NCBI RefSeq assembly: GCF_030384885.1
Contig: NZ_CP128613.1
Reading direction: 5' to 3' (one strand)
Origin: Escherichia coli
Lineage (GTDB): Bacteria; Pseudomonadota; Gammaproteobacteria; Enterobacterales; Enterobacteriaceae
DNA length: 64,000 nucleotides
Positions 7,382 through 56,292 of the stretch are shown one piece after another (the first letter of the stretch is position 1; every line of letters begins with the position of its first letter). The notes beneath the pieces were generated by a model. The model saw nothing but the letters and a program-made list of their open reading frames with translations. It searched no databases and had not been told where the DNA came from. A program made the position numbers and the translations under genes.

Positions 7382-9040
<1,659 letters not shown>

Positions 9041-9075
9041 TGATGTGCCACATCCGGCATGTTATGCCGGATGTG

Positions 9076-9167
9076 GCGTATGCTGATAAGACGCGCCAGC
9101 GTCGCATCAGTCAACCGGCTTGGGCGTTAGATGTCGGATGCGGCGTGACCGCCTTATCCGACCTACG
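9076..9167. repeat. REP / BIME palindromic elements between mqo and eco
   Basis: Two REP-like units (gcgtatgctgataagacgcgccagcgtcgcatcag; gtcggatgcggcgtgaccgccttatccgacctacg) preceded by a hairpin at 9048-9078. Confidence 0.7.
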
Positions 9168-9189
9168 GGGTGGAGCACTTCACGGCAGT

Positions 9190-9678
9190 TTAGAGGACTA
9201 CCGCGTTGTCAATTTTCTCTTCCGCCTTCCAGATGCGGTATTTCACATCTACATTGTCTGGCGTATACACCACGATCGGCAGCTTGCTGTTGTAACGCAG
9301 CATTCCAGCATCGCCCAGATACGCGGTGACAAATTTCTTCTCTTTCTTGCCATCCGGGCAGGCCATCATCGTGGAAACCGGCGAGCTAACTTTATCAAAG
9401 ACGTAATAATCATAGCCCCAGCCTTCCAGCGTTTTGCTTTCCAGCTTCCCGCCGAGACGATGCAAATTGCAATCGACTTCCAGCGTCTGACCGATTAACA
9501 GTTCTACTTTCAGGGTAGATTCATCTTCTTGCGGGGTTAACTGAATCACCTGACGCTTCATGCCTTTTTCAGCTTGCGGATAAGGCGCGATTTTTTCCAG
9601 TGGCTGGACGCTCTCTGCCGCCCAGGCGGAAGTGGTAGCGAAAGCGGCAAACAATACTGCAGGTAGAATGGTCTTCAT
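9190..9678 (-). CDS. eco: Ecotin (periplasmic serine protease inhibitor)
   Basis: 162-aa ORF with signal peptide [20 protein letters not shown]. Confidence 0.9.
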
Positions 9679-9899
9679 TGTTGTATTCCCTTCGTCATTT
9701 ATAGGTTTTCACCGATGATGTCGCTGAAGGTTAACATATTCATCAGATTTATTAATTTGCTTTATGAATAACTTAAAGAACATTCAGACAATTTTACCTG
9801 CTCTTTTAGTGTTAAATTCTGACGAGAGAACAAACCAGTAGAAATATCTCTGGTGAATTAATCGCTATATAAATGTGTTTATAACCATTTGAAATGTGA

Positions 9900-10084
9900 G
9901 CAAAAGCCCGTTTTTGCCACGCTTCCCGCCACTCTTTTGATCCTGCTACAGGTTTTACCTCGATCGGGGTATGCATCTTTGACACATCCTTTAATATCTT
10001 AGCGGCTATAAAAATGGCTTATTAATTATGCGGTTTATTTGGTCGCTCTCAATTTTCAGAGCGTATTAATGATGGAAGGTCAAT
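9900..10084 (+). promoter_or_regulatory. napF promoter/operator region (expected Fnr and NarP/NarL control)
   Basis: AT-rich 400-bp intergenic region upstream of napF; individual sites not resolved by eye. Confidence 0.35.
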
Positions 10085-10579
10085 GTGAAGATTGATGCAT
10101 CCCGTCGGGGCATACTCACTGGTCGCTGGCGCAAAGCCAGTAACGGTATCCGTCCGCCCTGGTCCGGTGATGAATCTCATTTTCTGACCCATTGCACCCG
10201 CTGTGACGCCTGTATTAATGCTTGTGAAAACAACATTCTGCAACGCGGCGCGGGGGGCTATCCGAGCGTTAATTTCAAAAATAACGAGTGCAGCTTCTGT
10301 TATGCCTGCGCGCAAGCTTGCCCCGAATCGCTATTTTCTCCGCGCCACACCAGGGCCTGGGATTTGCAGTTCACCATTGGGGACGCGTGCCTGGCGTATC
10401 AGTCAGTTGAATGCCGCCGCTGTCAGGATAGCTGTGAGCCAATGGCAATTATCTTTCGCCCGACGCTCTCCGGGATCTACCAGCCGCAACTTAATAGCCA
10501 ACTTTGCAACGGATGTGGAGCATGTGCAGCCAGCTGTCCGGTATCAGCCATAACTGCGGAGTATCTCCATGCACACTAA
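10085..10579 (+). CDS. napF: Ferredoxin-type protein NapF
   Basis: 164-aa ORF, GTG start, multiple CxxCxxCxxxCP 4Fe-4S motifs. Confidence 0.9.
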   Translation: MKIDASRRGILTGRWRKASNGIRPPWSGDESHFLTHCTRCDACINACENNILQRGAGGYPSVNFKNNECSFCYACAQACPESLFSPRHTRAWDLQFTIGDACLAYQSVECRRCQDSCEPMAIIFRPTLSGIYQPQLNSQLCNGCGACAASCPVSAITAEYLHAH

Positions 10580-10832
10580 CTGGCAAGTTTGCAGCCTGGT
10601 CGTGCAGGCCAAAAGCGAACGAATTTCAGACATCAGCACCCAACTGAACGCCTTTCCCGGCTGTGAAGTCGCTGTCAGCGACGCGCCGAGCGGTCAGTTG
10701 ATTGTGGTGGTGGAAGCAGAAGACAGCGAAACGCTGATCCAAACCATTGAGTCAGTACGCAACGTAGAGGGCGTGCTGGCGGTGTCGCTGGTTTATCACC
10801 AGCAGGAAGAGCAAGGTGAGGAAACACCATGA
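10569..10832 (+). CDS. napD: NapA chaperone NapD
   Basis: 87-aa ORF overlapping napF end and napA start. Confidence 0.85.
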
Positions 10833-13315
10833 AACTCAGTCGTCGTAGCTTTATGAAAGCTAACGCCGTTGCGGCCGCTGCGGCGGCTGCCGGTCTCAGC
10901 GTGCCGGGCGTTGCCCGCGCCGTTGTTGGTCAGCAGGAAGCCATTAAATGGGATAAAGCACCATGCCGTTTCTGCGGTACTGGTTGTGGCGTTCTGGTCG
11001 GAACGCAGCAGGGGCGTGTGGTGGCCTGTCAGGGCGACCCGGACGCACCGGTTAACCGTGGTCTGAACTGCATTAAGGGCTATTTCCTGCCCAAAATCAT
11101 GTACGGTAAAGACCGTTTGACGCAGCCGCTTCTGCGTATGAAAAACGGTAAATATGACAAAGAAGGCGAGTTCACCCCAATCACCTGGGATCAAGCCTTC
11201 GATGTGATGGAAGAAAAATTCAAAACTGCCCTGAAAGAAAAAGGGCCGGAATCGATCGGTATGTTCGGTTCTGGTCAGTGGACTATCTGGGAAGGTTATG
11301 CCGCGTCCAAGCTGTTCAAAGCGGGCTTCCGTTCGAACAACATCGACCCGAACGCGCGTCACTGTATGGCGTCGGCGGTAGTTGGCTTTATGCGTACCTT
11401 TGGTATGGATGAGCCGATGGGCTGCTATGACGACATCGAACAGGCTGACGCGTTTGTGCTGTGGGGCGCTAACATGGCGGAGATGCACCCGATTCTCTGG
11501 TCGCGCATCACCAACCGTCGTCTCTCTAACCAGAACGTCACCGTGGCGGTGCTTTCTACCTACCAGCATCGTAGCTTCGAGCTGGCGGATAACGGCATCA
11601 TCTTTACGCCACAGTCTGACCTGGTGATCCTGAACTACATCGCCAACTATATCATTCAAAACAACGCGATAAATCAGGACTTCTTTAGCAAACACGTTAA
11701 CCTGCGCAAAGGGGCGACGGACATCGGCTACGGTTTACGTCCGACCCATCCGCTGGAAAAAGCAGCGAAGAATCCAGGTTCTGACGCTTCCGAACCGATG
11801 AGCTTTGAAGATTACAAAGCCTTCGTTGCCGAGTATACGCTGGAAAAAACCGCTGAAATGACCGGCGTGCCGAAAGACCAGCTAGAACAACTGGCGCAGC
11901 TGTATGCCGATCCGAACAAGAAAGTCATCTCCTACTGGACGATGGGCTTCAACCAGCATACCCGTGGCGTGTGGGCCAACAACCTGGTCTACAACCTGCA
12001 CCTGCTGACCGGCAAAATTTCCCAGCCGGGTTGCGGTCCGTTCTCCCTGACCGGGCAGCCTTCCGCGTGTGGTACTGCGCGTGAAGTCGGCACCTTTGCT
12101 CACCGTCTGCCTGCGGACATGGTAGTGACCAACGAGAAACACCGTGATATCTGCGAGAAGAAGTGGAATATCCCGAGCGGCACCATTCCGGCGAAAATCG
12201 GCCTGCACGCGGTGGCACAGGACCGTGCGCTGAAAGACGGCAAACTGAATGTTTACTGGACCATGTGTACCAACAACATGCAAGCCGGGCCGAACATTAA
12301 TGAAGAGCGTATGCCGGGCTGGCGCGATCCGCGCAACTTTATCATCGTTTCCGATCCGTATCCGACAGTCAGTGCGCTGGCAGCCGACTTGATCCTGCCG
12401 ACCGCAATGTGGGTAGAAAAAGAGGGTGCTTACGGTAACGCCGAACGCCGTACTCAATTCTGGCGTCAGCAGGTACAGGCACCGGGCGAAGCGAAATCGG
12501 ATCTCTGGCAGTTAGTTCAGTTCTCCCGCCGCTTCAAAACTGAAGAAGTGTGGCCGGAAGAGTTGCTGGCGAAGAAACCGGAACTGCGTGGAAAAACGCT
12601 GTATGAGGTTCTGTATGCCACCCCGGAAGTGAGCAAATTCCCGGTATCCGAACTGGCAGAAGATCAGTTGAACGATGAATCCCGCGAGCTGGGCTTCTAT
12701 CTGCAAAAAGGGCTGTTCGAAGAGTATGCATGGTTTGGTCGCGGTCACGGTCACGATCTCGCGCCGTTCGATGACTACCACAAAGCGCGCGGTCTGCGCT
12801 GGCCGGTGGTTAACGGTAAAGAAACGCAGTGGCGTTATAGCGAAGGTAACGACCCGTACGTGAAAGCGGGTGAAGGCTACAAGTTCTACGGTAAACCGGA
12901 TGGCAAAGCGGTGATCTTCGCACTGCCGTTCGAACCGGCGGCGGAAGCACCGGATGAAGAGTACGATCTGTGGCTCTCTACCGGGCGTGTCCTGGAGCAC
13001 TGGCACACCGGCAGTATGACTCGCCGTGTACCGGAACTGCACCGTGCCTTCCCGGAAGCGGTCCTGTTTATTCATCCGCTGGATGCGAAAGCGCGCGATC
13101 TGCGTCGTGGCGACAAAGTGAAAGTGGTTTCTCGCCGTGGCGAAGTCATCTCGATTGTTGAAACGCGCGGTCGTAACCGTCCGCCGCAGGGCCTGGTGTA
13201 TATGCCGTTCTTCGACGCCGCACAGCTGGTTAACAAACTGACGCTGGATGCGACCGATCCGCTCTCGAAAGAGACGGACTTCAAGAAGTGTGCGGTCAAA
13301 CTGGAGAAGGTGTAA
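10829..13315 (+). CDS. napA: Periplasmic nitrate reductase catalytic subunit NapA
   Basis: 828-aa ORF; twin-arginine signal [11 protein letters not shown]; molybdopterin oxidoreductase Cys cluster CRFCGTGCG. Confidence 0.95.
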
Positions 13316-13321
13316 GCCATT

Positions 13322-14017
13322 ATGTCCCGGTCAGCGAAACCTCAAAATGGTCGCCGCCGCTTTCTGCGCGATGTCGTTCGCACAGCTGGCGGGCTGGCTG
13401 CCGTGGGTGTGGCGCTGGGGTTACAACAGCAAACCGCACGCGCATCTGGTGTGCGGTTGCGCCCGCCCGGAGCCATAAACGAGAACGCCTTTGCCAGTGC
13501 CTGCGTACGTTGCGGTCAGTGTGTTCAGGCTTGCCCTTACGACACCTTAAAACTGGCGACACTGGCCTCTGGCCTGTCGGCAGGTACGCCGTACTTTGTC
13601 GCGCGGGATATTCCTTGCGAAATGTGTGAGGACATTCCGTGCGCCAAAGTGTGCCCGAGCGGTGCGCTGGATCGAGAGATCGAATCGATCGACGACGCGC
13701 GGATGGGGCTGGCGGTGCTGGTGGATCAGGAGAACTGCCTCAACTTTCAGGGGCTGCGCTGCGATGTTTGCTATCGCGAATGCCCGAAAATTGATGAGGC
13801 AATCACCCTGGAGCTGGAGCGTAACACGCGTACCGGTAAGCACGCCCGTTTTCTGCCGACGGTTCACAGCGACGCCTGTACCGGCTGCGGTAAGTGCGAA
13901 AAAGTGTGCGTGCTGGAACAACCCGCAATCAAGGTGTTACCGCTGTCACTGGCGAAAGGGGAGTTAGGTCACCATTACCGCTTCGGCTGGCTGGAGGGGA
14001 ACAATGGCAAATCGTAA
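13322..14017 (+). CDS. napG: Ferredoxin-type protein NapG
   Basis: 231-aa ORF; Tat-like RRRFLRD; four 4Fe-4S Cys motifs. Confidence 0.9.
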
Positions 14018-14867
14018 ACGTGACGCCGGGCGCGAGGCGCTGGAGAAAAAAGGCTGGTGGCGCAGTCACCGTTGGCTGGTGTTGCGTCGCCTTTGTCAGT
14101 TCTTCGTGCTGGGAATGTTTTTGAGCGGCCCGTGGTTTGGTGTGTGGATCTTGCACGGCAACTACAGCAGTAGCTTGTTATTCGACACCGTTCCACTGAC
14201 CGATCCGCTGATGACGTTGCAAAGTCTTGCCAGCGGTCATCTGCCTGCCACGGTGGCGCTGACCGGTGCGGTGATTATCACCGTGCTCTACGCCCTGGCA
14301 GGAAAGCGATTATTTTGCAGCTGGGTCTGCCCGCTGAACCCGATTACCGATTTAGCAAACTGGTTACGCAGGCGTTTTGACCTCAATCAGTCTGCGACGA
14401 TCCCACGCCACATCCGCTACGTGCTGTTGGTGGTCATTCTGGTGGGTTCGGCCTTAACCGGCACGCTCATCTGGGAATGGATCAACCCCGTTTCCCTGAT
14501 GGGGCGCAGCCTGGTAATGGGATTCGGCAGCGGCGCGCTGCTTATTCTCGCGCTGTTTTTATTTGATCTACTGGTCGTTGAACACGGCTGGTGCGGGCAC
14601 ATTTGTCCGGTTGGTGCACTGTATGGCGTGCTGGGTAGTAAAGGTGTGATTACCGTTGCGGCCACCGATCGGCAGAAATGTAACCGCTGTATGGATTGTT
14701 TTCATGTTTGCCCGGAACCGCATGTGCTACGTGCCCCGGTGCTGGATGAACAAAGCCCGGTGCAGGTCACCAGCCGCGATTGCATGACGTGCGGTCGCTG
14801 CGTGGATGTCTGTTCTGAGGATGTATTTACAATAACTACACGATGGAGTTCGGGAGCGAAATCATGA
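14004..14867 (+). CDS. napH: Ferredoxin-type membrane protein NapH
   Basis: 287-aa ORF; TM helices plus C-terminal CxxCxxCxxxCP motifs. Confidence 0.9.
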
Positions 14868-15313
14868 AAAGCCATGACCTGAAGAAAGCGCTGTGTCAAT
14901 GGACGGCGATGCTGGCCCTGGTGGTAAGCGGCGCGGTTTGGGCGGCTAATGGCGTCGATTTTAGCCAGTCGCCGGAAGTATCCGGGACGCAGGAAGGGGC
15001 CATTCGGATGCCAAAAGAGCAGGATCGGATGCCGCTGAACTATGTGAATCAGCCGCCAATGATCCCGCATAGCGTTGAAGGTTATCAGGTAACGACCAAT
15101 ACCAACCGTTGCTTGCAATGCCACGGTGTCGAAAGCTATCGCACCACTGGCGCGCCGCGCATCAGTCCTACTCACTTTATGGACAGCGACGGCAAAGTGG
15201 GCGCAGAAGTGGCTCCACGTCGTTACTTCTGTCTGCAATGCCACGTGCCGCAGGCTGATACCGCGCCAATCGTGGGGAATACCTTTACCCCGTCAAAAGG
15301 TTACGGGAAATAA
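14864..15313 (+). CDS. napB: Diheme cytochrome c NapB
   Basis: 149 aa from ATG at 14864 (overlaps napH stop as ATGA); two CxxCH heme motifs (CLQCH). Confidence 0.9.
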   Translation: MKSHDLKKALCQWTAMLALVVSGAVWAANGVDFSQSPEVSGTQEGAIRMPKEQDRMPLNYVNQPPMIPHSVEGYQVTTNTNRCLQCHGVESYRTTGAPRISPTHFMDSDGKVGAEVAPRRYFCLQCHVPQADTAPIVGNTFTPSKGYGK

Positions 15314-15322
15314 GAGGTTATT

Positions 15323-15925
15323 ATGGGAAATTCTGACCGTAAGCCTGGTCTGATTAAGCGCCTGTGGAAATGGTGGCGTACCCCCAGCCGTCTGGCGCTA
15401 GGGACGCTGCTGTTGATCGGTTTTGTCGGCGGCATCGTTTTCTGGGGCGGCTTTAACACCGGGATGGAAAAAGCCAATACCGAAGAGTTCTGCATTAGCT
15501 GCCACGAAATGCGTAACACGGTGTATCAGGAATACATGGATTCCGTGCACTACAACAACCGTAGCGGCGTCCGTGCGACCTGTCCGGATTGTCACGTTCC
15601 GCACGAGTTTGTGCCGAAGATGATACGCAAGCTCAAAGCAAGTAAAGAGCTGTATGGTAAAATTTTTGGCGTTATTGACACGCCGCAGAAATTTGAAGCT
15701 CATCGCCTGACGATGGCACAGAATGAGTGGCGGCGCATGAAGGACAATAACTCGCAGGAGTGTCGTAACTGTCACAACTTCGAGTATATGGATACAACCG
15801 CCCAGAAATCAGTTGCCGCTAAGATGCACGACCAGGCGGTGAAAGATGGGCAAACCTGTATTGATTGCCATAAAGGGATAGCGCACAAGCTGCCCGATAT
15901 GCGCGAAGTCGAGCCAGGTTTTTAA
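15323..15925 (+). CDS. napC: Tetraheme cytochrome c NapC (NapC/NirT family)
   Basis: 200-aa ORF with four CxxCH motifs (CISCH, CPDCH, CRNCH, CIDCH). Confidence 0.9.
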   Translation: MGNSDRKPGLIKRLWKWWRTPSRLALGTLLLIGFVGGIVFWGGFNTGMEKANTEEFCISCHEMRNTVYQEYMDSVHYNNRSGVRATCPDCHVPHEFVPKMIRKLKASKELYGKIFGVIDTPQKFEAHRLTMAQNEWRRMKDNNSQECRNCHNFEYMDTTAQKSVAAKMHDQAVKDGQTCIDCHKGIAHKLPDMREVEPGF

Positions 15926-15937
15926 CAGGGTTATTGC

Positions 15938-16561
15938 GTGGGTATGCTTGAAGCCAGAGAGTTACTTTGCGAGCGGGATGAACGAACCTTATTTAGTGGC
16001 TTGTCATTTACGCTGAACGCAGGCGAGTGGGTACAAATCACCGGTAGCAACGGCGCGGGGAAGACAACGCTTCTCCGTTTGCTGACGGGGTTGTCTCGCC
16101 CTGACGCAGGCGAGGTTCTCTGGCAAGGGCAGCCCTTGCATCAGGTACGCGACAGCTACCATCAAAACCTGTTATGGATAGGCCATCAGCCGGGGATCAA
16201 AACCCGGCTGACGGCGTTAGAAAATCTGCACTTTTATCATCGCGATGGCGATACCGCACAATGTCTGGAAGCCCTGGCGCAGGCCGGGCTTGCCGGATTC
16301 GAAGATATTCCTGTAAATCAACTTTCTGCCGGGCAACAACGCCGCGTCGCTTTAGCGCGTCTGTGGCTGACCCGTGCCACGTTATGGATACTCGACGAGC
16401 CTTTTACCGCGATTGACGTTAACGGCGTCGATCGTCTGACCCAGCGTATGGCGCAGCATACGGAGCAGGGGGGGATTGTGATTCTGACTACCCACCAGCC
16501 GCTCAACGTTACTGAAAGTAAAATCCGCCGCATTTCACTGACGAAAACGAGGGCCGAATAA
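15938..16561 (+). CDS. ccmA: Heme exporter ATP-binding protein CcmA
   Basis: 207-aa ORF; Walker [10 protein letters not shown]; LSAGQQRR signature. Confidence 0.9.
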
Positions 16562-17220
16562 TGTTCTGGCGTATTTTCCGTCTTGAACTGCGCGTGGCGT
16601 TTCGCCATAGCGCCGAAATCGCCAACCCGCTGTGGTTCTTCCTGATTGTTATTACCCTTTTTCCGCTCAGTATCGGTCCGGAGCCGCAACTGCTCGCGCG
16701 TATTGCCCCTGGCATTATCTGGGTTGCAGCGCTGCTTTCATCCTTGCTGGCACTGGAACGACTGTTCCGTGACGATTTGCAGGACGGCAGTCTTGAACAA
16801 TTGATGTTGTTGCCGTTACCCTTGCCCGCCGTTGTGCTGGCGAAGGTGATGGCGCACTGGATGGTAACAGGTCTGCCGTTGCTCATCCTTTCGCCTCTGG
16901 TAGCAATGCTACTGGGAATGGATGTTTATGGCTGGCAAGTGATGGCGCTGACGCTGCTGCTGGGAACCCCAACGCTTGGTTTTCTCGGTGCACCGGGCGT
17001 GGCGCTGACAGTGGGACTTAAACGCGGTGGTGTGCTGCTCAGCATACTGGTGTTACCGCTGACTATCCCATTGCTCATCTTTGCCACCGCCGCGATGGAC
17101 GCGGCTTCGATGCATTTGCCCGTTGACGGGTATCTGGCAATTTTAGGCGCGTTGCTGGCAGGCACCGCGACATTAAGTCCTTTTGCGACGGCGGCAGCGT
17201 TACGAATCAGCATTCAATAA
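16561..17220 (+). CDS. ccmB: Heme exporter membrane protein CcmB
   Basis: 219-aa polytopic membrane ORF; ATG overlaps ccmA TAA by 1 nt. Confidence 0.9.
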   Translation: MFWRIFRLELRVAFRHSAEIANPLWFFLIVITLFPLSIGPEPQLLARIAPGIIWVAALLSSLLALERLFRDDLQDGSLEQLMLLPLPLPAVVLAKVMAHWMVTGLPLLILSPLVAMLLGMDVYGWQVMALTLLLGTPTLGFLGAPGVALTVGLKRGGVLLSILVLPLTIPLLIFATAAMDAASMHLPVDGYLAILGALLAGTATLSPFATAAALRISIQ

Positions 17221-17261
17221 CGCTGGATTACTGATTTTTGTTCGAGTCTGGTATCGAAACT

Positions 17262-17999
17262 ATGTGGAAAACACTGCATCAACTGGCGATCCCACCACGG
17301 CTGTATCAAATCTGTGGCTGGTTTATACCGTGGCTGGCAATTGCCAGTGTGGTCGTGCTTACCGTCGGCTGGATCTGGGGATTCGGCTTTGCTCCGGCTG
17401 ATTATCAGCAGGGAAATAGCTATCGCATTATCTACCTGCATGTGCCTGCGGCGATCTGGTCTATGGGCATTTATGCATCAATGGCGGTGGCGGCGTTTAT
17501 TGGCCTTGTCTGGCAGATGAAAATGGCCAACCTGGCGGTGGCGGCGATGGCCCCCATTGGTGCCGTATTTACCTTTATTGCCCTGGTTACCGGCTCTGCA
17601 TGGGGAAAACCGATGTGGGGCACCTGGTGGGTATGGGATGCACGCCTGACTTCTGAACTGGTGCTGCTGTTTTTGTATGTGGGTGTGATTGCCCTGTGGC
17701 ACGCCTTCGACGACCGCCGTCTGGCAGGCCGTGCGGCAGGTATTCTGGTGCTGATTGGCGTGGTGAACCTGCCGATTATTCATTACTCCGTGGAGTGGTG
17801 GAACACCCTGCATCAGGGATCAACGCGGATGCAGCAAAGTATCGATCCGGCGATGCGTTCGCCGCTGCGCTGGTCGATTTTTGGCTTCCTGCTGCTGTCT
17901 GCCACGCTGACGCTGATGCGGATGCGTAATTTAATTTTGCTGATGGAAAAACGCCGTCCGTGGGTGAGTGAACTGATACTGAAAAGAGGCCGTAAATGA
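17262..17999 (+). CDS. ccmC: Heme exporter protein CcmC
   Basis: 245 aa from ATG at 17262 (MWKTLHQLAIPP...); WGxxWxWD tryptophan-rich motif; track ORF begins at an upstream TTG. Confidence 0.9.
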   Translation: MWKTLHQLAIPPRLYQICGWFIPWLAIASVVVLTVGWIWGFGFAPADYQQGNSYRIIYLHVPAAIWSMGIYASMAVAAFIGLVWQMKMANLAVAAMAPIGAVFTFIALVTGSAWGKPMWGTWWVWDARLTSELVLLFLYVGVIALWHAFDDRRLAGRAAGILVLIGVVNLPIIHYSVEWWNTLHQGSTRMQQSIDPAMRSPLRWSIFGFLLLSATLTLMRMRNLILLMEKRRPWVSELILKRGRK

Positions 18000-18205
18000 C
18001 CCCTGCATTTGCTTCCTGGAATGAATTTTTCGCAATGGGCGGTTACGCCTTTTTTGTCTGGCTGGCGGTGGTGATGACCGTTATTCCGCTGGTGGTTTTG
18101 GTCGTGCACTCGGTGATGCAGCATCGCGCAATTCTGCGTGGCGTGGCGCAACAGCGGGCGCGTGAGGCGCGTTTACGTGCTGCGCAACAGCAGGAGGCTG
18201 CATGA
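17996..18205 (+). CDS. ccmD: Heme exporter small subunit CcmD
   Basis: 69-aa ORF with 4-nt overlaps to ccmC and ccmE. Confidence 0.85.
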
Positions 18206-18681
18206 ATATTCGCCGTAAAAACCGCTTGTGGATTGCCTGTGCCGTGCTGGCGGGGCTGGCGCTGACTATCGGCCTGGTGTTGTATGCGCTGCGCTCGAAT
18301 ATCGATCTTTTTTATACGCCGGGGGAAATTCTCTACGGCAAGCGTGAAACTCAACAGATGCCGGAAGTCGGTCAGCGTCTGCGCGTTGGCGGGATGGTAA
18401 TGCCGGGTAGCGTACAGCGCGATCCCAATTCGCTGAAAGTAACGTTCACCATTTACGACGCTGAAGGCTCAGTGGATGTCTCTTACGAAGGCATTTTGCC
18501 GGATCTGTTCCGTGAAGGGCAGGGCGTTGTGGTGCAGGGTGAACTGGAAAAAGGCAATCATATCCTCGCGAAAGAAGTGCTGGCGAAACACGATGAAAAC
18601 TACACGCCGCCAGAAGTCGAGAAAGCGATGGAAGCTAATCACCGTCGCCCGGCGAGTGTTTATAAGGACCCAGCATCATGA
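18202..18681 (+). CDS. ccmE: Cytochrome c-type biogenesis heme chaperone CcmE
   Basis: 159-aa ORF with N-terminal TM anchor. Confidence 0.9.
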
Positions 18682-20621
18682 TGCCAGAAATTGGTAACGG
18701 ACTGCTATGCCTGGCGCTAGGAATTGCGCTGTTGCTGTCCGTGTATCCGCTATGGGGCGTGGCGCGCGGGGATGCGCGCATGATGGCTTCTTCGCGCTTG
18801 TTTGCCTGGCTGCTATTTATGTCTGTGGCTGGCGCATTTCTGGTGCTGGTCAATGCTTTCGTGGTGAATGACTTTACTGTCACCTATGTTGCCAGCAACT
18901 CCAATACCCAGCTTCCGGTGTGGTATCGCGTAGCGGCAACCTGGGGTGCGCATGAAGGCTCGCTACTGCTGTGGGTGCTGCTGATGAGCGGCTGGACCTT
19001 TGCGGTGGCGATTTTTAGTCAGCGTATTCCGCTAGATATTGTGGCCCGTGTACTGGCGATAATGGGGATGGTCAGTGTCGGCTTTTTGTTGTTCATTCTC
19101 TTTACCTCTAACCCGTTCTCACGCACGTTGCCGAACTTCCCGATTGAAGGGCGCGATCTTAACCCGCTGTTGCAGGATCCAGGGCTGATCTTCCATCCGC
19201 CTCTGCTCTATATGGGGTACGTCGGTTTCTCGGTGGCGTTTGCTTTTGCCATTGCTTCTTTGCTGAGTGGGCGTCTGGACAGCACTTACGCACGCTTTAC
19301 CCGTCCGTGGACGCTGGCGGCGTGGATCTTCCTGACGCTCGGCATTGTGCTCGGTTCCGCATGGGCCTATTACGAACTCGGCTGGGGCGGCTGGTGGTTC
19401 TGGGATCCGGTAGAAAACGCCTCGTTTATGCCGTGGCTGGTGGGGACTGCGCTGATGCACTCACTGGCGGTCACTGAACAACGCGCCAGCTTCAAAGCGT
19501 GGACATTACTGCTGGCAATCAGTGCCTTCTCGTTGTGTCTGTTGGGGACTTTCCTCGTGCGTTCCGGCGTGCTGGTATCGGTACACGCGTTTGCGTCTGA
19601 TCCGGCGCGCGGTATGTTTATCCTCGCTTTTATGGTGCTGGTGATTGGCGGTTCGCTGCTGCTGTTTGCCGCGCGTGGACACAAAGTTCGCTCACGCGTA
19701 AACAATGCGCTGTGGTCGCGGGAATCTCTGCTGTTAGCGAACAACGTTTTGCTGGTCGCCGCAATGCTGGTGGTATTGCTGGGGACGCTGCTGCCGCTGG
19801 TGCACAAGCAACTGGGACTGGGCAGCATTTCGATTGGCGAACCGTTCTTCAACACCATGTTTACCTGGCTGATGGTGCCGTTTGCGCTACTGCTGGGTGT
19901 CGGTCCTCTGGTGCGCTGGGGGCGCGATCGCCCACGTAAAATCCGCAATTTATTGATTATCGCCTTCATCTCTACGCTGGTGCTGTCTCTGCTGTTGCCG
20001 TGGCTGTTCGAAAGCAAAGTTGTGGCGATGACGGTGCTCGGCCTGGCAATGGCCTGCTGGATTGCGGTGCTGGCAATTGCGGAAGCTGCGCAGCGTATTT
20101 CACGCGGCACGAAAACCACCTTTAGTTATTGGGGCATGGTGGCGGCTCACCTGGGGCTGGCAGTAACAATTGTTGGTATTGCCTTTAGCCAGAACTATAG
20201 CGTTGAGCGTGATGTGCGCATGAAGTCCGGCGATAGCGTCGATATTCATGAATATCGCTTCACCTTCCGTGATGTCAAAGAGGTGACTGGCCCGAACTGG
20301 CGCGGCGGTGTGGCGACTATCGGCGTAACGCGCGATGGCAAGCCGGAAACGGTGCTGTATGCGGAAAAACGTTATTACAACACTGCAGGGTCGATGATGA
20401 CCGAAGCGGCGATTGACGGCGGCATCACGCGTGACCTGTACGCCGCGCTCGGTGAAGAGCTGGAAAACGGCGCGTGGGCTGTGCGTCTTTACTACAAACC
20501 GTTTGTTCGCTGGATTTGGGCGGGCGGGCTGATGATGGCGTTGGGCGGGCTGCTGTGCCTGTTTGATCCTCGCTATCGTAAGCGCGTGAACCCGCAGAAA
20601 ACTGCGCCGGAGGCTGTATGA
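18678..20621 (+). CDS. ccmF: Cytochrome c-type biogenesis protein CcmF
   Basis: 647-aa polytopic ORF with W-rich motif [12 protein letters not shown]. Confidence 0.9.
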
Positions 20622-21175
20622 AGCGCAAAGTATTGTTAATTCCTTTGATTATCTTCCTGGCGATTGCCGCGGCGCTGCTGTGGCAGCTGGCGCGTAATGC
20701 CGAAGGGGATGATCCGACCAATCTGGAATCGGCGCTCATTGGCAAGCCGGTGCCGAAGTTTCGCCTCGAATCACTGGACAACCCGGGGCAGTTTTATCAG
20801 GCGGATGTGCTGACTCAGGGCAAACCAGTGCTGCTTAACGTCTGGGCGACCTGGTGTCCGACCTGCCGTGCGGAACATCAATATCTGAATCAGCTTTCTG
20901 CGCAGGGCATCCGAGTGGTCGGCATGAACTATAAAGACGATCGCCAGAAGGCAATCAGCTGGCTGAAAGAGCTGGGCAATCCTTACGCACTAAGCCTGTT
21001 TGATGGCGACGGCATGTTAGGGCTGGATCTCGGTGTCTATGGTGCACCAGAAACGTTCCTCATCGACGGCAACGGCATCATTCGCTATCGCCATGCGGGT
21101 GATCTCAATCCCCGCGTCTGGCAAGAAGAGATCAAGCCGCTGTGGGAGAAATACAGTAAGGAGGCCGCACAATGA
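20618..21175 (+). CDS. ccmG: Thiol:disulfide interchange protein CcmG (DsbE)
   Basis: 185-aa ORF; thioredoxin motif WCPTC. Confidence 0.9.
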   Translation: MKRKVLLIPLIIFLAIAAALLWQLARNAEGDDPTNLESALIGKPVPKFRLESLDNPGQFYQADVLTQGKPVLLNVWATWCPTCRAEHQYLNQLSAQGIRVVGMNYKDDRQKAISWLKELGNPYALSLFDGDGMLGLDLGVYGAPETFLIDGNGIIRYRHAGDLNPRVWQEEIKPLWEKYSKEAAQ

Positions 21176-22224
21176 GGTTTTTATTGGGCGTGCTGATGCT
21201 GATGATCTCCGGCTCAGCGCTGGCGACCATCGACGTGTTGCAGTTTAAAGATGAAGCACAGGAACAACAGTTTCGTCAGCTTACTGAAGAACTGCGCTGC
21301 CCGAAATGCCAGAATAACAGCATTGCTGATTCCAACTCGATGATTGCCACCGACCTGCGCCAGAAAGTGTACGAACTGATGCAGGAAGGTAAAAGCAAGA
21401 AAGAGATTGTCGATTATATGGTGGCGCGCTATGGCAACTTCGTCACTTACGACCCGCCGTTAACGCCGCTGACCGTGCTGCTGTGGGTGCTTCCGGTAGT
21501 GGCTATTGGCATTGGCGGTTGGGTCATTTACGCCCGTTCGCGGCGTCGGGTACGCGTGGTGCCGGAAGCGTTTCCTGAACAAAGCGTGCCGGAAGGTAAG
21601 CGTGCCGGATATGTTGTTTATCTGCCGGGTATTGTGGTGGCGTTAATTGTGGCTGGCGTCAGCTACTACCAGACCGGCAATTATCAGCAGGTGAAAATCT
21701 GGCAGCAGGCCACGGCACAGGCGCCGGCGTTATTGGACAGGGCGCTGGATCCGAAAGCCGATCCGCTCAACGAAGAAGAGATGTCCCGCCTTGCGCTGGG
21801 GATGCGTACTCAACTGCAAAAAAATCCGGGAGATATAGAAGGCTGGATTATGTTGGGACGCGTTGGCATGGCGCTGGGTAACGCCAGTATCGCCACCGAT
21901 GCATACGCCACTGCGTATCGCCTCGATCCGAAGAACAGTGATGCCGCACTCGGATACGCTGAAGCGTTGACTCGTTCATCTGATCCCAACGACAACCGCC
22001 TCGGCGGCGAACTGCTACGCCAGTTGGTGAGAACGGACCATAGCAATATCCGTGTGTTAAGCATGTATGCGTTTAATGCCTTTGAGCAGCAGCGATTTGG
22101 CGAAGCCGTTGCCGCGTGGGAGATGATGTTGAAACTCTTACCTGCCAACGATACTCGCCGTGCGGTGATTGAACGTAGTATCGCGCAGGCGATGCAACAC
22201 TTATCACCACAGGAGAGTAAATAA
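21172..22224 (+). CDS. ccmH: Cytochrome c-type biogenesis protein CcmH (CcmH-CcmI fusion)
   Basis: 350-aa ORF; LRCPKCQ motif; TPR-like C-terminal half. Confidence 0.9.
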   Translation: MRFLLGVLMLMISGSALATIDVLQFKDEAQEQQFRQLTEELRCPKCQNNSIADSNSMIATDLRQKVYELMQEGKSKKEIVDYMVARYGNFVTYDPPLTPLTVLLWVLPVVAIGIGGWVIYARSRRRVRVVPEAFPEQSVPEGKRAGYVVYLPGIVVALIVAGVSYYQTGNYQQVKIWQQATAQAPALLDRALDPKADPLNEEEMSRLALGMRTQLQKNPGDIEGWIMLGRVGMALGNASIATDAYATAYRLDPKNSDAALGYAEALTRSSDPNDNRLGGELLRQLVRTDHSNIRVLSMYAFNAFEQQRFGEAVAAWEMMLKLLPANDTRRAVIERSIAQAMQHLSPQESK

Positions 22225-22283
22225 GAACAAGCCCGATGGTGATGCCATTGGGCCAGACTGATGGCAAAGTGCGCTTTGTTTAT

Positions 22284-22381
22284 GCCAGATGCGGCGTAAA
22301 CGCCTTATTCAGCCTACAAAATCGTGCGAACTCAATACATTGCTCGATCCGCGTAGGCCTGATAAGCGTAGCGCATCAGGC
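22284..22381. repeat. REP / BIME pair between ccmH and narP
   Basis: gccagatgcggcgtaaacgccttattcagcctac and inverted cgtaggcctgataagcgtagcgcatcaggc. Confidence 0.75.
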
Positions 22382-22405
22382 AGTTTTGCGTTTGTCATCA
22401 ATATC

Positions 22406-22438
22406 AGCCCGAGGGTAAATCCATCGGGCTATTTTTTT
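22406..22438 (+). terminator. Rho-independent terminator at end of the nap-ccm transcript
   Basis: Hairpin agcccgagggtaaatccatcgggct followed by TTTTTTT; T-run abuts the narP stop. Confidence 0.65.
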
Positions 22439-23084
22439 ATTGTGCCCCACGTTGTTGCAGGAACAGAATGGTGGCCGCCACGCGTGAGCGGACATTGAGT
22501 TTACGCAGCAGATTGCGAATGTGTACTTTTACTGTCTGCTCGGAAATATTCAACACAGAGGCAATCTGTTTATTTGACAGCCCTTGTGCCAGCTCGTGCA
22601 GAACATCCAGCTCGCGCTCCGTCAGCACGCTGAAGGGATCTTCTTCCGCGCCAAACATTTCACGTTCACGTAAGTACTGATTGACGCGTTCGCTAAAGAC
22701 TTTGCTGCCTTTCGCTCCGGCACGAATCGCTTCCAGCAACACTTCCGGGTCGCTGTCTTTCAACAGATAACCGTCTGCGCCTGCGTCTATCAGCGCAAAG
22801 ACATCGCTGGAGGCATCTGATACGGTCAGGATAATAATTTGCGCGGTAACGCCATCCCTGCGCAAGGCATTGAGGGTATCCAGGCCACTCATACCTTTCA
22901 TATTGAGATCCAGCAAGATCACGTCGATATCCAGTCTATTCGCCAGATCGATAGCACTTGCGCCGTCGCCCGCTTCGGCGACCACTTCAAAGCCAGGATC
23001 AAGTTCCAGTAACTGACGAACACCGCGTCGCATAAGTGGATGATCATCCACAATCATCACCTGAAAAGGCGTTGCTTCAGGCAT
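22437..23084 (-). CDS. narP: Nitrate/nitrite response regulator NarP
   Basis: 215 aa from ATG at 23082-23084 (MPEATPFQVMIVDDHPLMRRG...); receiver domain plus LuxR-type HTH. Confidence 0.9.
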   Translation of the reverse strand: MPEATPFQVMIVDDHPLMRRGVRQLLELDPGFEVVAEAGDGASAIDLANRLDIDVILLDLNMKGMSGLDTLNALRRDGVTAQIIILTVSDASSDVFALIDAGADGYLLKDSDPEVLLEAIRAGAKGSKVFSERVNQYLREREMFGAEEDPFSVLTERELDVLHELAQGLSNKQIASVLNISEQTVKVHIRNLLRKLNVRSRVAATILFLQQRGAQ

Positions 23085-23402
23085 AGTAGTCTCCTGAGGT
23101 TTTATTAGAATCATTATGTTTGAGCGTAGCGTTGGTAACGCTACCAGGCGCGTGAATGTTACCCCATTTTATGTATGGACATGTAGTGAAAACTACAACC
23201 TTGTCTTTTGCTTTGGCATCATTTTCATTATAAAGACGGAATTTTGCATCAACTTCCCATCAAGAAAAACAACTAAAAAATCAATCACAATACATGTGCA
23301 TTTCTTTAAACAGTTTTTAAAAACTGACTCCGGGTATGGCGCTATGGGTATTTTCAGTACCCAATGCTTTTACAGCAATTAATTTCATAGGATGAAAGAT
23401 TA

Positions 23403-55054: not shown

Positions 55055-56292
55055 ATGGATATAATGAGAAGTTTGGTGGGTATGGTGGTATTGCTGGCAA
55101 TTGCATTCTTATTGTCAGTGAATAAAAAAGGTATCAGCATACGCACGGTCGGGGCTGCATTGCTGCTGCAAATCGCTATTGGTGGCATTATGCTCTACTT
55201 CCCACCGGGAAAATGGGCAGTAGAGCAGGCGGCATTAGGCGTGCATAAAGTGATGTCTTACAGTGATGCCGGTAGCGCCTTCATTTTTGGTTCGCTGGTT
55301 GGGCCGAAAATGGATGTCCTGTTTGATGGCGCGGGCTTTATCTTCGCCTTTCGCGTACTTCCGGCAATTATTTTCGTCACAGCGCTCATCAGCCTGCTGT
55401 ACTACATTGGCGTGATGGGGCTGCTAATCCGCATTCTTGGCAGTATTTTTCAGAAAGCCCTCAACATCAGCAAAATCGAATCTTTTGTTGCGGTTACCAC
55501 TATTTTCCTCGGGCAAAATGAGATCCCGGCGATCGTTAAACCGTTTATCGATCGCATGAATCGCAACGAGCTATTTACGGCAATTTGTAGCGGGATGGCG
55601 TCCATTGCCGGTTCGATGATGATTGGTTATGCCGGAATGGGCGTACCAATTGACTACCTGTTAGCGGCATCGCTGATGGTATTTTGTTTGCACGTATTCT
55701 TAGCCCAGCCACCGAGCCTTCGCAGGTGACATTTGAAAATCTGTCGTTCAGCGAAACGCCGCCAAAAAGCTTTATCGAAGCGGCGGCGAGCGGTGCGATG
55801 ACCGGGTTGAAAATCGCCGCTGGTGTGGCGACGGTGGTAATGGCGTTTGTGGCAATTATTGCGCTGATCAACGGCATTATCGGCGGAATTGGTGGCTGGT
55901 TTGGTTTTTCCAATGCCTCTCTGGAAAGTATTTTTGGCTATGTGCTGGCACCGCTGGCGTGGATCATGGGCGTGGACTGGAGTGATGCCAACCTTGCGGG
56001 TAGCCTGATTGGGCAGAAACTGGCGATTAACGAATTCGTCGCTTACCTGAGTTTCTCCCCATACCTGCAAACGGGCGGCACGCTGGAAGTGAAAACCATT
56101 GCGATTATCTCCTTTGCGCTTTGTGGTTTTGCTAACTTTGGTTCTATCGGTGTTGTCGTTGGGGCGTTTTCGGCTATTTCGCCAAAACGCGCGCCGGAAA
56201 TCGCTCAGCTTGGGTTACGGGCGTTGGCAGCAGCAACGCTTTCAAACCTGATGAGTGCGACCATTGCCGGGTTCTTTATTGGTTTAGCTTGA
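55055..56292 (+). pseudogene. psuT: Nucleoside (putative pseudouridine) transporter PsuT/YeiM, frameshifted into two ORFs (55055-55729 and 55684-56292)
   Basis: The two ORFs are in different frames and together span 1238 nt versus 1251 nt for intact paralog nupX; by-eye alignment places a 13-nt gap between 55679 and 55680. Confidence 0.7.

Follow-up and report, generated by a model that had tools for sequence, protein, structure and literature searches.

The 15-gene nap-ccm operon of an Escherichia coli chromosome and its overlapping stop and start codons

The present analysis concerns 15 consecutive open reading frames (ORFs) on the + strand, at positions 10085-22224 of a stretch of 64,000 nucleotides from Escherichia coli (RefSeq assembly GCF_030384885.1, contig NZ_CP128613.1), hereafter called the window. 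The region is the chromosomal nap-ccm (aeg-46.5) operon of E. coli, napFDAGHBC-ccmABCDEFGH, in which genes overlap at ten of the 14 junctions, eight of these by 4 or 1 nt. By analogy with tested E. coli gene pairs, we consider it likely that the operon is translated as a series of coupled blocks under termination-reinitiation, with its main promoter in front of napF and its end before narP. The nap-ccm operon, like the overlap of its stop and start codons, is already known and ordinary, and the prevalence of ATGA and TGATG overlaps in E. coli is textbook knowledge, so the finding is mainly a confirmation. Three points go beyond what was expected, namely an ATG to ATA change in ccmB together with a questionable annotation of its start, the weak starts found at the flexible junctions, and the absence of ccmAB from the Providencia locus.

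At a query coverage of at least 80%, a 12.3-kb query over the operon was matched in 5,417 of 5,426 complete E. coli genomes, the closest match being NZ_CP027579.1 (strain 2013C-4282, from human stool) with essentially 100% identity. Along that genome, the RefSeq names run napF, D, A, G, H, B, C, ccmA-F, dsbE (ccmG) and ccmH. Each product clears the curated NCBIfam cut-off by a wide margin (Table 1), CcmH being recognised instead by the Pfam families PF03918 and PF23914; the E. coli protein is a fusion of CcmH and CcmI (PMC10457321). An earlier reading made from the sequence alone (the sequence-only reading) had named the same genes of periplasmic nitrate reductase and cytochrome c maturation, and its identities, order and coordinates all agree with the ORF list, the RefSeq annotation and the profile matches. 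In K-12 MG1655 (b2208-b2194), the same 15 genes lie in the same order between the same flanks; nucleotide identity is 97.1%, each protein differs by 0-3 residues, and 13 of the 14 junction sequences are identical, bar one substitution upstream of the ccmF/ccmG junction.

Computed from the window sequence, with negative values giving the overlap in nt, the junction distances are -11 (napF/napD), -4 (napD/napA), +6 (napA/napG), -14 (napG/napH), -4 (napH/napB, ATG at 14864), +9 (napB/napC), +12 (napC/ccmA), -1 (ccmA/ccmB, ATG at 16561), +41 (ccmB/ccmC) and -4 at each of the five junctions from ccmC/ccmD to ccmG/ccmH. All 4-nt overlaps read ATGA, and the 1-nt overlap reads TAATG. Every overlap size given in the sequence-only reading (-11, -4, -14, -4, -1 and five times -4) is present, and its description of the operon as tightly packed holds for these ten junctions but not as uniform packing, as four junctions (+6, +9, +12 and +41) have no overlap.

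The start codons on which these distances depend were compared with the annotation, with family profiles and with related loci. The RefSeq coordinates in NZ_CP027579.1 are the same for all genes but ccmB, and NCBIfam alignments that begin at residue 1 or 2 back the starts of napD, napH, napB, napC, ccmE and ccmG. The ccmC start at ATG 17262 (MWK...) is kept in all 34 loci compared. The starts assumed in the sequence-only reading hence coincide with the annotation except at ccmB, where RefSeq has an ATA and the ATG chosen by that reading is the more plausible. Two longer frames were rejected, namely napB from 14843, which is ruled out by the full-length NF008609 alignment in favour of ATG 14864, and ccmC from TTG 17238, which is ruled out by the conservation of the MWK start. 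At ccmA, tandem in-frame starts GTG-GGT-ATG (15938-15946) are present, with the ATG at 15944 two codons past the GTG. Some Citrobacter lineages have the ATG only, with a stop just upstream, and others the GTG only, the ATG being changed to ATA; because these lineages differ, conservation does not settle the E. coli ccmA start and with it the napC/ccmA distance (+12 or +18).

The overlaps are more frequent than chance would give. Within the window, overlapping pairs make up 10 of 14 junctions in the operon versus 4 of the 31 other co-directional annotated pairs (Fisher p = 2e-4), and none of these 31 overlaps by 4 nt. Likewise, 9 of the 14 operon junctions belong to the class spaced from -8 to +6 nt, compared with 24% of unidirectional pairs genome-wide in E. 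coli (PMC10666635; binomial p = 1.4e-3). Conservation is nevertheless a stronger argument than these counts.

To describe conservation, the 15 operon proteins were mapped onto 42 loci that carry a relative of CcmE, drawn from Escherichia, Citrobacter, Leclercia, Klebsiella, Providencia, Franconibacter, Yokenella, Yersinia, Edwardsiella and Edaphovirga, with denominators that vary by junction. In the nap part, the distance is -11 at napF/napD in 21 of 23 loci, -4 at napD/napA in 18 of 23 (-20 in Providencia), +6 at napA/napG in 22 of 23, -14 at napG/napH in 25 of 26, -4 at napH/napB in 23 of 26 and +9 at napB/napC in 23 of 26. In the ccm part, start candidates at -4 or -1 occur at ccmA/ccmB in 33 of 34 loci, and a distance of -4 or -1 is found at ccmC/ccmD in 37 of 39, at ccmD/ccmE in 40 of 42 (the remaining two having 0) and at ccmF/ccmG in all 40; ccmE/ccmF is spaced -4 in 39 of 41 loci, and ccmG/ccmH in 28 loci directly and in nine more once the query was split. 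Most of the outlier junctions lie in loci with truncated or out-of-frame matches, and we suspect assembly frameshifts there. The two junctions napC/ccmA and ccmB/ccmC behave differently: the first spacer measures 6 to 27 nt, depending on the species, and the second 11 to 188 nt, with 23 distinct lengths among 34 loci. In Citrobacter and Klebsiella (loci L012-L024, L032, L033, L044-L048), the ccmB-ccmC spacer reaches 70-144 nt through palindromes (gtaggccggataaggcg...) that resemble repetitive extragenic palindromic (REP) elements. A short motif, gagtctggtgactgaa, just 5' of the ccmC ATG is conserved. The operon thus is a clear illustration in which junctions of the coupling type are frozen across Enterobacterales, while two spacers, which would be uncoupled, evolve freely.

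In Franconibacter, Yokenella, Yersinia, Edwardsiella and Edaphovirga (L034-L041, L043, L045, L049), ccmI is a gene of its own, and a start candidate at -4 or -1 lies at the ccmH stop; in such split loci, ccmG/ccmH is spaced -4 in 9 of 11 cases. The fused ccmH of E. coli could have arisen by loss of the ccmH stop. Stand-alone System I operons, ccmABCDE(FGHI), of other proteobacteria such as Vibrio natriegens, Shewanella and Yersinia have the same ccm order as E. coli, and the Yersinia and Edwardsiella loci share its -4/-1 overlaps from ccmC onward. Unlike the E. coli operon, these stand-alone operons are not joined to nap, and in them ccmH is followed by a distinct ccmI, the two overlapping by 4 or 1 nt.

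What could this geometry mean for translation? Overlaps of -4 and -1 are the commonest configuration in E. coli (PMC6728339, PMC10666635), and Huber et al. found strict termination-reinitiation coupling in four of the five native E. coli pairs that they tested at an overlap of 4 nt, with a Shine-Dalgarno (SD) sequence usually contributing (PMC6728339). Reinitiation was reduced by 80-100% once the distance was raised to +38 nt (PMC10666635). Because tested native -4 pairs were coupled, we infer by analogy that the eight -4/-1 junctions of nap-ccm are coupled as well. The pairs of Huber et al. 2019 and 2023 (hyfHI, astDB, ydbH-ynbE, menDH) share the ATGA or TAATG/TGATG geometry, carry the SD within the upstream gene, as here, and likewise encode complex subunits or partners. 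They differ in that nap and ccm lie outside the tested set and in that two longer overlaps (-11 and -14) occur here. The junctions at +9 and +12 correspond to the '+9 to +12' class of these authors, and the one at +6 falls just below that range; the class is regarded by them as polycistronic and as probably independently initiated or otherwise coupled. The phrase 'consistent with translational coupling' in the sequence-only reading, and its remark that this is expected biology, fit the literature on -4 and -1 pairs (PMC6728339, PMC10666635).

Transcription most likely starts mainly at the FNR- and NarP-activated napF promoter and ends in the structured T-rich region before narP. If the analogy holds, translational coupling would divide the message into four blocks, napF-D-A, napG-H-B (followed at +9 by napC), ccmA-B and ccmC-D-E-F-G-H. 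Where genes overlap by 4 nt (ATGA) or 1 nt (TAATG), a ribosome ending the upstream gene would reinitiate at once on the overlapping start, aided by an SD in the end of the upstream gene. The products NapD-NapA, NapG-NapH, NapH-NapB, CcmA-CcmB, CcmC-D-E and CcmF-G-H would then be synthesised at one site and in constant ratios. Genes for subunits of heteromeric complexes have been reported to be enriched in overlaps (PMC10666635). For CcmA and CcmB there is also a functional rationale, as CcmB that is free and in surplus is harmful through its expulsion of haem, and the location of its gene within a ccmABCD operon is argued to ensure the right stoichiometry (PMC11868835).

The translation signals are of relevance here. 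When all operon positions are ranked by anti-SD hybridisation energy, 13 of the 15 starts are in the best ~8%, and those of ccmE, ccmG, ccmH and napH in the best 0.5%. All eight -4/-1 junctions have an anti-SD free energy (dG) of -5.8 or lower, with the SD inside the 3' end of the upstream gene. The two starts that have no SD match, ccmA (GTG, dG -3.3) and ccmC (dG -3.0), each follow one of the variable, non-overlapping spacers, which hints that the module boundaries of the operon coincide with weak translation starts.

Several observations weigh against coupling as proposed. A literature search on translational coupling of nap or ccm genes returned nothing specific and no direct measurement for any of the junctions, and the overlaps of -11 and -14 are longer than the -4 and -1 overlaps that have been tested. 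An SD of its own precedes each overlapping downstream cistron, so that independent initiation could supply much of its translation. For E. coli, local mRNA structure that blocks de novo initiation at the internal SD has been proposed. The predicted unpaired probability at -15 to +4 of the starts does not differ from the operon background (p = 0.18); this prediction shows no sign of the masking of ribosome binding sites that would enforce coupling, but speaks neither for nor against it. A second, weak and FNR-independent ccmA promoter inside napC is also said to have been described by Tanapongpipat and co-workers in 1998, in which case the 15 genes would not always form one transcript. Finally, the overlapping pair bioB/bioF was found to be initiated de novo (PMC6728339).

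A rival view holds that the overlaps arose passively, through genome compaction and the turnover of starts and stops, each gene being initiated independently from its own SD and the overlap having no regulatory role. The SD at 13 of 15 starts, start regions that are no more structured than background and bioBF as a tested E. coli pair with de novo initiation all agree with it. Shifts of start or stop alone can create overlaps (PMC3887535), and a junction that lies in two coding frames is hard to change, which could explain part of its conservation. However, passive overlap does not sit well with junctions that stay at -4, -1 or 0 across genera while nearby spacers span 11-188 nt, nor with a frequency of overlaps well above both the window and the genome background. 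In addition, the single-base change of the present strain shifts ccmB from -4 to -1 and not away from the stop, and coupling was found for four of the five native pairs tested. We regard a passive origin as unlikely, although independent initiation from the embedded SD sites is a viable rival to coupling.

The two flexible junctions raise the further question whether the packing reflects mere adjacency of two or more independent transcription units, such as nap, ccmAB and ccmC-H. Both length-variable, non-overlapping junctions lie exactly at napC/ccmA and ccmB/ccmC. In the four Providencia loci (L028-L031), neither ccmA nor ccmB was found within 10 kb on either strand, and napC is followed after a spacer of ~193 nt (about 8862-9055) directly by ccmC-H, with no ccmAB in between. 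The Edaphovirga locus L043 likewise begins at ccmC. The weak ccmA promoter that reportedly lies within napC would also fit separate units, and other bacteria hold ccm apart from nap (PMC10937671). The gaps of only 12 and 41 nt, on the other hand, leave no room for both a terminator and a promoter. A consensus scan gave no promoter-like + strand site within napC or between ccmB and ccmC. Terminator-like sites number 21 inside the operon, which is the level of chance (17.3 +/- 4.4 expected from shuffled sequence), so that the strong internal terminators which the sequence-only reading had named as counter-evidence do not appear in the sequence scan. Moreover, several papers treat nap and ccm as a single, FNR-dependent operon (PMC2634741, PMC3946193, PMC3893208, PMC10937671). 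Taken as a whole, independent units appear highly improbable to us.

Within an operon of coupled blocks, the junctions napC/ccmA and ccmB/ccmC probably reset the translation levels between modules. One could go further and speculate that the operon strings its coupled blocks together through two junctions, napC|ccmA and ccmB|ccmC, at which coupling is deliberately avoided, since these have weak starts, free length and REP insertions, and since they bound a ccmAB cassette that is yet absent from the Providencia locus. We put this forward tentatively, as a conceivable but rather doubtful extension. If it were true, and the junctions lowered the ratio of CcmCD to CcmAB synthesis, it would bear on the disputed stoichiometry of the complex, Ccm(AB)2CD versus Ccm(ABCD)2.

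The ccmA/ccmB junction reads ATGATG in K-12 and in almost all relatives, whereas the window has ATAATG at 16558-16563 (GCATGATG at -4 in K-12 versus GAATAATG in the window, at -1 from the ATG). A single G to A change at 16560 simultaneously turns the ccmA stop from TGA into TAA and the first ccmB ATG into ATA. The allele is rare: among 5,420 genomes, a 75-nt junction query gave one exact match and three with a one-base difference; ATAATG is also present in strains MFDS1022581 and 2020CK-00188. The RefSeq start of ccmB at 16558 is this ATA; with it, the overlap is 4 nt, and the product, of 220 aa, stays equal to WP_000971730.1. In E. coli, initiation at AUA amounts to roughly 0.1-3% of that at AUG (bioRxiv 10.1101/063800). 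ATA 16558 is hence unlikely to be the main ccmB start, and as AUA initiates poorly and an ATG adjoins it, the functional start is most likely ATG 16561; the ATA call looks like an annotation artefact carried over by homology. With this start, the allele moves the junction from -4 to -1, which would still be a geometry competent for coupling, and the TAATG arrangement is the native one at ccmA/ccmB of Yersinia. The ATG to ATA allele would thus offer a natural, ready-made test of coupling at -4 versus -1.

Upstream of napF, a putative FNR-type site and a putative NarP/NarL heptamer pair can be read in the sequence (Table 1), their centres being 20 bp apart, with that of the FNR-type site (9943.5) upstream. 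These motifs appear to match the published K-12 architecture, and their spacing fits the -64.5/-44.5 arrangement that Darwin and Stewart are reported to have described for napF. Should the NarP/NarL site be centred at -44.5, napF transcription would start near 10008. Activation of napF by FNR and NarP and antagonism by NarL have been described (PMC9262595). Within the operon, a near-consensus palindrome of the FNR/CRP type (TTGATTGCCATAAA, 15861-15874, in the 3' part of napC) was considered as an element of an internal ccmA promoter and rejected, because it encodes the fourth haem-binding motif C-I-D-C-H and its conservation tracks the coding sequence.

Behind ccmH, the region contains a hairpin GCCCGA...TCGGGC (22407-22429) followed by a T7 run (22432-22438) that abuts or runs into the stop of the convergent narP, the T run being 2 nt longer than that of K-12. 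The whole 3' region has a fold energy of -91 kcal/mol (z = -5.7), and its predicted fold spans the REP region by pairing between GCCCGATGG (22231-22239) and CCATCGGGC (22421-22429). It is plausible that the hairpin and T run act as the operon terminator. An Rfam scan of positions 9000-23500 gave nothing inside the operon and REP-type matches outside only, namely naRNA4 (RF02564) above its gathering score at 9081-9163, between mqo and eco, and weak REP/ES036 matches at 22278-22375 (ES036 at 22318-22360), between ccmH and narP.

Table 1. Coordinates of the operon genes and of associated features in the window. Distances refer to the preceding gene; dG is the anti-SD hybridisation energy.
Feature	Position	Strand	Remarks
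FNR-type site TTGATcctgCTACA	9937..9950	+	Putative; read in sequence, upstream of napF
NarP/NarL 7-2-7 heptamer pair TACCTCG-AT-CGGGGTA	9956..9971	+	Putative; read in sequence
napF	10085..10579	+	GTG start, 164 aa; TIGR00402 equivalog, 248 bits; RefSeq; SD dG -6.2
napD	10569..10832	+	11-nt overlap with napF; NF007840 aligned 1-87 of 87
napA	10829..13315	+	ATGA overlap with napD; TIGR01706, 1655 bits
napG	13322..14017	+	+6 nt from napA; NF007012, 416 bits
napH	14004..14867	+	14-nt overlap with napG; NF007013 from residue 2; strong SD, dG -9.8
napB	14864..15313	+	ATGA overlap with napH; NF008609 aligned 1-149 of 149
napC	15323..15925	+	+9 nt from napB; NF007906 aligned 1-200 of 200
ccmA	15938..16561	+	GTG start, +12 nt from napC; NF010061, 332 bits; weak SD, dG -3.3
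ccmB	16561..17220	+	ATG 16561, TAATG, 1-nt overlap; TIGR01190, 317 bits; RefSeq start ATA 16558
ccmB-ccmC spacer	17221..17261	+	41 nt; sole sizeable gap of the operon
ccmC	17262..17999	+	ATG start; TIGR01191; SD dG -3.0, background level, no SD match
ccmD	17996..18205	+	ATGA overlap with ccmC; TIGR03141
ccmE	18202..18681	+	ATGA overlap with ccmD; NF009635
ccmF	18678..20621	+	ATGA overlap with ccmE; TIGR00353, 1017 bits
ccmG/dsbE	20618..21175	+	ATGA overlap with ccmF; NF011941 aligned 1-185 of 185
ccmH	21172..22224	+	ATGA overlap with ccmG; CcmH (PF03918) and CcmI-like CcmH/CycH TPR domain (PF23914)
Structured 3' region	22231..22438	+	REP-like repeats, then hairpin, then T run

In RefSeq and K-12 alike, the operon is flanked upstream by eco and a yojO-like small gene and downstream by the convergent narP. 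A promoter-like element on the - strand, TTGAGA-16-CATAAT (10025-10052), is directed away from napF towards the yojO-like ORF (9812-9976) and matches the constitutive yojO promoter described in PMC3946193. Further downstream, yejO (23403-25997), encoding an autotransporter of 864 aa, is intact in the window, whereas in K-12 it is a pseudogene broken by IS5.

Over the 64 kb, the window and NZ_CP027579.1 differ by five substitutions, one 1-nt insertion and one 13-nt deletion, so that the window stems from a genome or assembly version slightly different from that record. A run of G in ccmA (16462-16468) counts seven in the window and in K-12 and six in NZ_CP027579.1, where ccmA is flagged as a frameshifted pseudogene; the shorter run is probably a homopolymer assembly error. 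The 13-nt deletion, at 55677, lies in psuT, which encodes a nucleoside transporter of the NupC/NupG type, and splits the gene into ORFs at 55055-55729 and 55684-56292.

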